From positions 1 through 19,757 of IMG/VR virus record IMGVR_UViG_2734482784_000002: a stretch of 19,757 bases of DNA; one strand, written 5' to 3'. The stretch is from a virus (Duplodnaviria > Heunggongvirae > Uroviricota > Caudoviricetes). Below are positions 9,937 to 10,169 of the stretch, piece after piece. A program made the translations under genes and the position numbers. Each line of letters begins with the position of its first letter. Within the stretch, counting starts at the first letter, position 1. The notes under the pieces were generated by a model. That model was given only the letters and a program-made list of their open reading frames with translations, made no database searches and had not been told where the DNA came from.

Positions 9937-10011
9937 TGGAGCGGGTAGCGGGAATCGAACCCGCATCATCAGCTTGGAAGGCTGAGGTAATAACCATTAT
10001 ACGATACCCGC
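9937..10011 (-). tRNA. tRNA-Gly (anticodon UCC), CCA encoded
   Basis: Reverse complement GCGGGTATCGTATAATGGTTATTACCTCAGCCTTCCAAGCTGATGATGCGGGTTCGATTCCCGCTACCCGCTCCA folds as a cloverleaf by hand: 7-bp acceptor stem, anticodon loop CTTCCAA, T-loop TTCGATT. Very close to host glyT as recalled. Confidence 0.85.
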
Positions 10012-10014
10012 ATA

Positions 10015-10090
10015 TGGTGCCGACTACCGGAATCGAACTGGTGACCTACTGATTACAAGTCAGTTGCTCTACCTACTGAGCTAAGTCGGC
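10015..10090 (-). tRNA. tRNA-Thr (anticodon UGU), CCA encoded
   Basis: Reverse complement GCCGACTTAGCTCAGTAGGTAGAGCAACTGACTTGTAATCAGTAGGTCACCAGTTCGATTCCGGTAGTCGGCACCA; acceptor GCCGACT/AGTCGGC, anticodon stem ACTGA/TCAGT with loop CTTGTAA. Confidence 0.75.
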
Positions 10091-10095
10091 ACAGA

Positions 10096-10169
10096 ACCGC
10101 CACCGAGGTATCGAACCTCACACCTACCACTTAAATGATGGTCGGCTCTTCCCGATGAGCAGATGGCGG
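10096..10169 (-). ncRNA. tRNA-like element with non-canonical anticodon arm (possible pseudo-tRNA or atypical tRNA)
   Basis: Reverse complement CCGCCATCTGCTCATCGGGAAGAGCCGACCATCATTTAAGTGGTAGGTGTGAGGTTCGATACCTCGGTGGCGGT has acceptor, D-arm and T-arm (TTCGATA loop) pairings. The best anticodon arm (ACCAT/GTGGT, loop CATTTAA) puts A at position 33, needs an extra nucleotide, and no CCA is encoded. Confidence 0.35.

Follow-up and report, generated by a model that had tools for sequence, protein, structure and literature searches.

A three-member tRNA cluster in the late region of a Rac-family lambdoid prophage of Escherichia coli and its probably decaying argN-family member

In Stx-converting phages of the 933W type, the tRNA genes ileZ, argN and argO lie after the late antiterminator gene Q and ahead of the late and lysis genes, and in phages SfI, Sf6, ST64T and 21 Asn(GUU)/Thr(UGU) genes occur downstream of Q in the lambdoid late region. 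Longer arrays of the order Met-Lys(UUU)-Thr-Gly are found in PhiR47_1, vB_EcoM-606R7 and strain ETEC1734, and E. coli itself carries the host operon thrU-tyrU-glyT-thrT. Here we analysed a window of 19,757 nucleotides of viral DNA in which a tRNA-like gene, hereafter the third element, is followed by genes for tRNA-Thr(UGU) and tRNA-Gly(UCC). The cluster shares its position with ileZ-argN-argO, but the window has neither ileZ nor argO, and Thr(UGU) and Gly(UCC) stand where argO and stx follow in those phages. In SfI, Sf6, ST64T and phage 21 the partner of Thr is Asn, whereas in the window it is Gly together with the third element. Compared with the host operon, the Thr gene of the window corresponds to thrU and its Gly gene nearly to glyT, but the two are joined by a spacer of 3 nt without tyrU or thrT, and the pair is placed in a prophage late region.

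The window belongs to a Rac-family lambdoid prophage of E. coli, since several E. coli chromosomes have Rac-type prophage regions that match the 421 nt around the tRNAs at 100% identity, and both trkG and the RalA antitoxin RNA also lie inside it. Its best matches among E. coli genomes reached 96% coverage at 97.6% identity. The first-pass annotation, made from the letters of the window, had placed the tRNA cluster between Q and the lysis genes, and this placement held, with a Q-like gene upstream and genes for a phage 21-type holin, a lysozyme and an Rz protein downstream (Table 1). The Q-like gene is annotated as a DUF1133 family protein at the near-identical locus of E. coli PK8568, and the small ORF that separates the tRNAs from the lysis genes had no match in Pfam or NCBIfam. 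About 80 nt after Q there is a terminator-like hairpin, which we infer, by analogy with lambdoid late-operon architecture, to act in the late leader as a terminator of the tR' type.

Table 1. Positions of the tRNA cluster and of the features around it in the window
Feature	Coordinates	Strand	Evidence
Q-like late antiterminator gene (DUF1133 family)	10424..10966	-	Pfam DUF1133 3.6e-107 and a weak Phage_antitermQ match
Terminator-like hairpin with T run	10318..10343	-	terminator scan: 10 pairs, 6 G-C, then TTGTTTCTGG
Third element, argN-family tRNA-like gene, probable pseudogene	10093..10169	-	family model R1
tRNA-Thr(UGU), CCA encoded	10015..10090	-	ARAGORN; Rfam tRNA; thrU identity
tRNA-Gly(UCC), CCA encoded, glyT variant	9937..10011	-	ARAGORN; Rfam tRNA
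Small hypothetical ORF between tRNAs and lysis cassette	9528..9818	-	hypothetical protein in PK8568
Holin, phage 21 S type, essD-like	9035..9250	-	Pfam Phage_holin_2_1 1.9e-34; essD in PK8568
Endolysin (lysozyme, rrrD-like)	8538..9035	-	Pfam Phage_lysozyme 1.6e-45
Rz-type lysis protein	8077..8553	-	Pfam Phage_lysis 7.6e-53

ARAGORN called tRNA-Thr(tgt) and tRNA-Gly(tcc) and left the third element uncalled, and the Rfam tRNA model gave Thr 73.8 bits and Gly 67.8 bits against a gathering score of 29, in agreement with the earlier description of two cloverleaf tRNAs with encoded CCA. Both genes have the 7-nt anticodon loop, U8, U33, T-loop UUCGA and CCA of canonical elongator tRNAs. The proposed alignment of Thr(UGU) with its host copy showed it to be identical to K-12 thrU at 76/76 positions. 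Over its 75 positions, the Gly gene departs from K-12 glyT at three (linear 6 C>T, 19 C>T and 66 G>A), exactly the three changes for which it had been described as a compensated glyT variant. Linear position 66 of glyT pairs with position 6, and the 6:67 pair is accordingly changed from C:G to U:A in the phage gene; the C>U change in the D-loop falls directly after G18G19. The allele with both U:A and the D-loop change was present in 13/13 window-type loci fetched. Elsewhere among the loci fetched, 60 prophage arrays carry the host Gly allele, 6 loci the U:A allele without the D-loop change and 1 locus a U.G intermediate, and compensated changes at 5:68 or 4:69 occur in other prophage copies. 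The known identity elements for GlyRS are G1:C72, C2:G71, G3:C70, U73, C35 and C36, a list from which 6:67 is absent. The acceptor-stem alleles of Gly are ordinary structure-preserving variants.

The third element runs on the minus strand from C1 at 10169 to the discriminator at 10097. Read from 5' to 3', it consists of the acceptor strand CCGCCAU, C8 U9, the D arm GCUC-AUCGGGAA-GAGC, two bases (CG) joining the D stem to the anticodon stem at the usual site of position 26, the anticodon stem ACCAU/GUGGU around the loop CAUUUAA (A33), the variable loop AGGUG, the T arm UGAGG-UUCGAUA-CCUCG, the 3' acceptor strand GUGGCGG, and U-UCU in place of U-CCA. CCA is encoded in the tRNA genes of E. coli and U33 is universal in tRNA; the third element thus departs from a canonical elongator at C8, A33, the two bases that take the place of nucleotide 26, and UCU. 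It had been described beforehand as degenerate and tRNA-like, with the acceptor, D and T arms kept, the disturbed loop CAUUUAA with A33, and no CCA, and all of this proved accurate. The Rfam tRNA model was silent over it even at E≤10 in a search of 601 nt, with speed filters that missed some above-threshold relatives too.

Folded alone, the third element forms a cloverleaf of -30.6 kcal/mol (z = -3.2), and 0/200 shuffles were equally stable. A covariance model of the argN family, R1, was built from 35 family members with window-type sequences left out, and it matched the element over its full length at 68.3 bits (E = 3e-17) with 20/20 pairs standard, which places the element far beyond chance. 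A chance cloverleaf was ruled out by the z-score, the shuffles and the family match together. Identity with a Y RNA-like RNA (YrlA) was rejected as well, at 19.6 bits against an Rfam threshold of 69; that match covers the third element, runs into Thr and reflects generic tRNA-likeness alone. Matches to plastid-ycf2 on the plus strand were discarded as artefacts because they are reverse complements of tRNAs.

The full-length match to R1 with all pairs standard identifies the third element as an argN homologue in its usual array slot. Of 5,426 E. coli genomes, 280 gave a BLAST match to the third element alone; in about 240 of these the identity is 60-80% and, among the matches listed, the gene is mostly annotated as tRNA-Arg (CFT073, UTI89, Nissle and others); identity with family members was 77-79%, with E values down to 6e-8. 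Members of the family are recognised by the acceptor stem CCGCCA(C/U)/(G/A)UGGCGG, the D arm GCUCA..GAGC, the T arm CG(A/G)GG-UUCGA and a significant score with a family covariance model, and by a place downstream of Q, either just before Thr(UGU)-Gly(UCC) or just after the Met/Ile(CAU) gene; the element lies downstream of Q and directly upstream of Thr(UGU)-Gly(UCC). From its discriminator to Thr there are 5 nt (UCUGU), the same spacing as CCA+GU in the relatives. The comparison with ileZ-argN-argO loci that the first-pass annotation proposed was the right lead, and the element can be named an argN-family relic: argN of this cluster (in an Stx2a phage) shares the acceptor stem (CCGCCAU...) and the D and T arms with it and is a homologue of the second gene, X, of the wider array, the first gene of which is matched by ileZ. 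Unlike argN, the third element has the loop CAUUUAA rather than CUUCGAA and has lost U8 and CCA. Arginine decoding by a UCG or UCU anticodon in a CUUCNAA loop is not encoded, with U at position 35; C35 is the main determinant for ArgRS.

Met/Ile(CAU)-X-Thr(UGU)-Gly(UCC), in which X belongs to the argN family, is widespread as a lambdoid array, and the window cluster is a shortened form of it. Met-X-Thr-Gly was the commonest architecture among 126 viral-contig matches, and the third element aligned with the second gene of the arrays in PhiR47_1, vB_EcoM-606R7 and ETEC1734, which have the gene order, short spacers, an identical Thr gene and a homologous X in common with the window. Those arrays keep the Met/Ile gene, and their X has the loop CCUUUAA (C33), U8A9 and CCA, with a Gly gene that is mostly the host allele. 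In the window the first array gene is gone and unrelated sequence is in its place; neither alignment nor ARAGORN nor the family model revealed a Met/Ile(CAU) remnant upstream of the third element.

We then considered the argN family as a whole. When a single genome of each species was scanned with a pattern in which the 5' acceptor strand, the D stem and GGUUCGA alone were specified, about 85 matches were obtained in Enterobacterales, and nearly all of them had an intact 3' strand of the T stem, an intact 3' acceptor strand and NCCA, though these lie outside the pattern. Among 101 unique family sequences the anticodon loop ranges from 3 to 9 nt and has 7 nt in only 52, with 57 distinct loops, for example GUAC, UUUA, CAGGAU, CACGAU, CAUUUAA, AUUUUAU and CAUAUUAA. 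The anticodon stem was fully paired (5/5) in 94 of the 101 sequences, compared with 28% of shuffles. Covariation was detected at all five anticodon-stem pairs and all stems were supported; 99.3% of cells were paired overall, and 0/500 shuffles reached the observed covariation. Canonical Arg(UCU or UCG) members scored 59 bits with the Rfam tRNA model and the C33 'Lys' member 44, and many loop-degenerate members were below the Rfam threshold or unreported. At many non-canonical loci, a small panel of Q, holin and lysin proteins had no match within 8-kb windows, a panel and a span too small to decide whether these members are phage-borne.

In a chromosomal subgroup of 13 species (Enterobacter, Scandinavium, Citrobacter and relatives), an argN-family gene occupies a syntenic locus with a conserved TTGTAA-17-TAGAAT promoter sequence and a covarying terminator hairpin. 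In this subgroup the tRNA-like body has a mean identity of 98.7%, compared with 36-60% in the non-coding DNA on either side and 78% in the neighbouring ORF, and the anticodon loop varied in sequence and length. In the Klebsiella oxytoca complex a syntenic chromosomal copy has a tetraloop. The exact-pattern search favours well-preserved copies, so it is the contrast between body and loop that is informative and not the conservation of the body alone; the comparison of the syntenic subgroup is free of that bias. A 74-aa ORF (MLEGYFDLD...) belongs to no family in Pfam or NCBIfam and is 'hypothetical' everywhere. A general link between it and argN-family genes was rejected, the two occurring together in one chromosomal subgroup only (13/226 loci). 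No description of the body and loop pattern was found in Rfam or in the literature searched, which omits most subscription journals.

Measured against this family, the window allele ranks as a degraded member rather than a typical one. All 101 unique family sequences have U8 and a Watson-Crick pair (C:G or U:A) at 7:66, 98 have A9 and 96 end in CCA; against these the window allele stands alone with C8, U9, UCU and U7.G66. Its UCU differs from CCA by two substitutions that leave the spacing to Thr unchanged. Only two other window-type alleles were found, and both bear lesions in the T arm, one being G53>A, which breaks the universal G53:C61 pair, and the other a deletion of GUGUGAGG, 8 nt in the 5' strand of the T stem. 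By identity class, 14 of the 40 E. coli genomes of the window type have an intact copy, 18 a copy with a single mismatch and 8 the deletion allele, the lesion having been read directly in one genome per damaged class and the 18 and 8 assigned by class; G53A was present in 4/4 one-mismatch viral contigs. The adjacent Thr and Gly genes are invariant in window-type loci. Because U8, A9 and CCA are lost and both sister alleles break the T arm, the third element is most likely decaying, and we regard it as quite probably a pseudogene.

The drift appears to be of recent date. The nearest subfamily to the window allele, CG-AUAAC-CAUUUAA-GUUGU-AGGUG, has the same loop. The window allele differs from it at five sites of the anticodon stem and at one of the T stem, and pairing is kept in each case; a double change among them turns the 29:41 pair from A-U into C-G. 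In our reading, the retention of 20/20 pairs and the pairing-preserving nature of these changes indicate that the third element was under structural constraint until recently and is now drifting. This bears on the alternative that it is a working, non-decoding tRNA-like RNA with its function in the acceptor, D and T body and not in the anticodon. The retained base pairs fit such an RNA, as do a family body and CCA that are conserved without the 3' half having been imposed by the search, loops as diverse as those described above, covariation in all stems, and chromosomal members with a promoter and terminator of their own. We nevertheless consider it unlikely for the window allele, which is the sole family member to have lost U8, A9 and CCA together and whose sister alleles are damaged in the T arm; the argN family, moreover, has no function on record. 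The first-pass annotation had left the choice between a decaying tRNA and an RNA with another role, and the former is the better supported by the lost features and the T-arm lesions, the latter being the weaker option. A decaying element may still be processed or of use.

With 34 K-12 genes as the host reference and the prophage genes of the window as the prophage set, ACA accounted for 26% of Thr codons in the prophage vs 12% in the host (p = 5e-7) and GGA for 20% vs 10% of Gly codons (p = 8e-6). AGA made up 16% vs 2% of Arg codons and AUA 12% vs 5% of Ile codons. The suggestion that the phage tRNAs supply codons is thus supported by a roughly 2-fold enrichment of ACA and GGA in prophage genes. 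In its complete ancestral form the array reads AUA, AGA (or CGA/CGG), ACA and GGA, and the window cluster is a trimmed form of this common lambdoid array for A-ending codons (AUA, AGA, ACA, GGA) that the prophage over-uses. The host tRNAs from thrU and glyT are of low abundance, and most reading of ACA falls to the former and of GGA/GGG to the latter. For Thr(UGU) of phage SfI, the ACA codon bias was given as the explanation (PMC3636060). Since ACA and GGA are over-used, the corresponding host tRNAs are scarce and the same argument has been made for SfI, codon supply during late gene expression is the best-supported function of the cluster, although the enrichment is a correlation that any AT-richer mobile DNA would show likewise.

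The share of AAA among Lys codons was alike in prophage and host, and this lack of enrichment counts against the idea that the third element is a functional lysine tRNA with the anticodon UUU reading AAA. That idea draws on related CCA-bearing genes, which ARAGORN calls tRNA-Lys(ttt), and on the C33 variant, which PGAP annotates as tRNA-Lys. The third element, however, lacks CCA, has A33 where U33 is universal, carries C8 and has one base too many ahead of the anticodon stem, and sister sequences with the same body carry non-decoding loops (CAUUGCC, CAUAUUAA and CAUUAA). A lysine tRNA is therefore very improbable.

Of a lambdoid late-operon tRNA module, which would be transcribed from PR' under Q antitermination, the window shows the Q-like gene and the terminator-like hairpin. 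No convincing late promoter was found by scan, which gave one site, inside the tRNAs, or by eye, where TATAAT at 10243-10238 and TAAATT after Q were noted, neither with a usable -35; transcription of the cluster with the late operon is thus predicted from the layout. Taken together, the cluster is probably best explained as a late tRNA module in which Thr and Gly supply the decoding of ACA and GGA and X is a decaying gene of the argN type. Under this model, Q would let RNA polymerase read through the hairpin, and the tRNAs would be transcribed with the late operon and released from the transcript, with spacers of only 2-6 nt, by RNase P and 3' exonucleases. With the Thr and Gly copies, more of the scarce tRNAs that decode ACA and GGA would then be available. 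X would have begun as an argN-type arginine tRNA with the anticodon UCG or UCU, its anticodon loop would have changed to CAUUUAA in a sublineage that retained the tRNA body, and in the Rac lineage it would have lost terminal and tertiary-structure features and would now be decaying, most likely with no part in decoding.

Escape from host anticodon nucleases had been offered as a further role for phage tRNA variants. P2 OLD, the classical excluder of lambda, cuts paired CNG motifs in the anticodon stem (PMC12445682); Thr(UGU) is the first species that it depletes, and Gly(UCC), fMet, Val(UAC) and Pro(UGG) are depleted as well (bioRxiv 10.64898/2026.07.10.737580). AriB of PARIS has its cleavage site, U36AAUC|A41, in Lys(UUU), Thr(UGU) and Asn(GUU) (PMC12409363). 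Phage tRNAs that rescue infection have altered cleavage sites, and resistance is recognised by an altered CNG/CNG or a shortened anticodon stem for OLD and by an altered U36AAUCA41 for AriB (PMC12445682, PMC12409363). The resistant tRNAs (Lys, Thr and Asn of T5 against PARIS; Thr of T4, T5, Bas32 and HK446 against OLD) include isoacceptors that recur here, Thr(UGU) in the window and Lys(UUU) in related arrays, but in the resistant tRNAs an altered anticodon stem or loop prevents cleavage, and Thr and Gly of the window show no such alteration. The window Thr gene has the stem ACUGA/UCAGU with CUG/CAG at 28-30/40-42 and reads UAAUCA, as in the host, and the Gly gene has the stem UCAGC/GCUGA with CAG/CUG at 28-30/40-42, again as in the host. 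Escape by the two intact genes is thus not supported, since both keep host anticodon arms with the CNG/CNG motifs and, in Thr, UAAUCA; neither shows the changes associated with escape from OLD or PARIS.

A related view would make the cluster a counter-defence kit against the Toprim tRNA nucleases OLD and AriB, in which phage copies replace cleaved host tRNAs. It gains some appeal from the fact that Thr(UGU) and Gly(UCC) are among the species reported as most depleted by OLD (bioRxiv 10.64898/2026.07.10.737580), the classical victims of which are lambdoid phages (PMC12445682), and from the UUU-loop variants of X, which read UAAGUU or UAAGUG in place of the AriB site U36AAUCA41. We consider it improbable, as Thr is thrU itself and the anticodon arm of Gly is that of glyT, with every cleavage motif retained, two studies saw hardly any rescue from OLD, or none, when host thrU was overexpressed, and X of the window is probably dead. 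Two of the five species reported as most depleted by OLD, including its preferred target Thr(UGU), are thus encoded in the window, and as these lack resistance changes, the prophage is a natural negative control for the nuclease-escape idea. The striking overlap of the prophage tRNA set with the preferred OLD substrates would be better explained by shared codon dependence than by resistance, and it poses the reverse question, whether the nucleases evolved to hit the tRNAs on which lambdoid phages depend most.

For the window itself, the result is mainly a tidy annotation, in which an unannotated stretch of 77 nt beside two annotated tRNAs is an argN relic, and the locus is another case of the tRNA modules of lambdoid late regions, here with one gene decaying. 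Of wider interest is the anticodon-independent conservation of the argN family. A fixed body and CCA with a variable loop suggest a role independent of the anticodon, and we tentatively propose, from sequence conservation, that in many Enterobacterales prophages and chromosomes the family may be more than a group of phage arginine tRNAs and represent a conserved tRNA-like RNA, sometimes self-transcribed, with body and CCA under strong purifying selection and a varying or diversifying loop, of which the third element would be a recently inactivated copy. Possible roles of this kind are a decoy or sponge for tRNA nucleases, an RNase P-dependent module for packed neighbours, and a carrier outside translation. 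The conservation pattern of the argN family goes beyond what decoding explains.

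The window is a mosaic relative to the Rac prophage of E. coli PK8568, which aligns with it only at 5924-11253 (99.8% identity) and 12088-13469 (97% identity). No alignment to the PK8568 prophage was found for 11254-12087 or for anything outside 5924-13469, and the head and tail side as well as the early region are other modules. The window prophage was assigned to the Rac type because it carries a match to the antitoxin sRNA RalA (RalR/RalA system). The lysis cassette is followed, as in Rac, by a gene for a trkG-like potassium transporter, which favours A-ending rare codons even more than the phage genes do, with AUA making up 37% of its Ile codons. 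Downstream of the tRNA cluster, two further terminator-like hairpins on the same strand as the tRNAs might terminate the tRNA transcripts without Q.

Coordinates of the features discussed, in the window and in fetched loci (L-numbers)
Feature	Locus	Position	Strand	Remarks
RalA antitoxin sRNA	window	18023-18201	-	full-length match, 225 bits
trkG-like potassium transporter gene	window	6482-7957	-	directly after lysis cassette
Terminator-like hairpin	window	9818-9839	-	roughly 100 nt beyond the Gly gene, where a small ORF starts
Terminator-like hairpin	window	9643-9661	-	within the small ORF
Commonest second gene of E. coli prophage arrays	L001; L002; L006	3002-3078; 1502-1578; 1502-1578		about 70 identical viral-contig copies; annotated tRNA-Lys
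Chromosomal tRNA-like gene (argN family)	L148	6232-6309	-	syntenic
Tetraloop argN-family gene	L191	5586-5660	+	Klebsiella oxytoca complex; also L198, L201, L211, L234
tRNA group, Enterobacter mori	L153	5151-5587		canonical Arg(UCU), argN-family member with 6-nt loop, Thr(UGU)

The commonest second gene of the E. coli prophage arrays has C33 (in the loop CCUUUAA) and a mismatched pair, A51.C63. At positions 36-41 it reads UAAGUU, as against the UAAUCA cut by the tRNA nuclease PARIS AriB (PMC12409363), and its neighbour is the gene for PARIS's other main target, Thr(UGU). Rare prophage copies of Thr(UGU), two genes among the fetched loci, carry UCACC or UUACC in place of UCAGU on the 3' side of the anticodon stem. 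These changes would shorten the anticodon stem and remove one CNG motif, and changes of the same kind have been reported to give resistance to the P2 OLD nuclease (PMC12445682). The Thr(UGU) of the window has neither change.

A chromosomal member of the argN family is syntenic in 13 species (L148 and its orthologues L163, L169, L171, L173, L177, L193, L197, L199, L209, L215, L220 and L221). The gene is equipped with a promoter of its own (TTGTAA-17-TAGAAT) and with a terminator hairpin, and is followed downstream by a conserved 74-aa ORF (MLEGYFDLD...) that belongs to no known family. Over the 13 species the body of the RNA shows 98.7% identity, compared with 36-60% for the flanking non-coding DNA, while the loop varies in both length and sequence among the orthologues. 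In the Klebsiella gene, which has a conserved chromosomal place with a DsbD-like gene on one side and a LysR-type regulator on the other, the anticodon loop is replaced by 4 nt. Such a tetraloop is also present in four non-syntenic copies with unrelated flanks (L195 from Citrobacter amalonaticus, L226, L227 and L236), which are 94-95% identical to the Klebsiella gene. In these genes taken together the tetraloop reads GUAC, AUAC, UUUA or UUUU. The Enterobacter mori group has an EAL-domain gene and one resembling a CAAX protease as its neighbours. A search of its surroundings detected no phage late genes, and the group may be what is left of a prophage at a site of the argU type.

Across Enterobacterales, in genome contigs (L140-L237) and viral contigs (L009-L127), the tRNA-like genes of the argN family retain all of the tRNA body (acceptor, D and T arms) as well as the CCA end. 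Their anticodon loop is 3-9 nt long and occurs in 57 different versions among 101 unique genes, and decoding is impossible for many members of the family.
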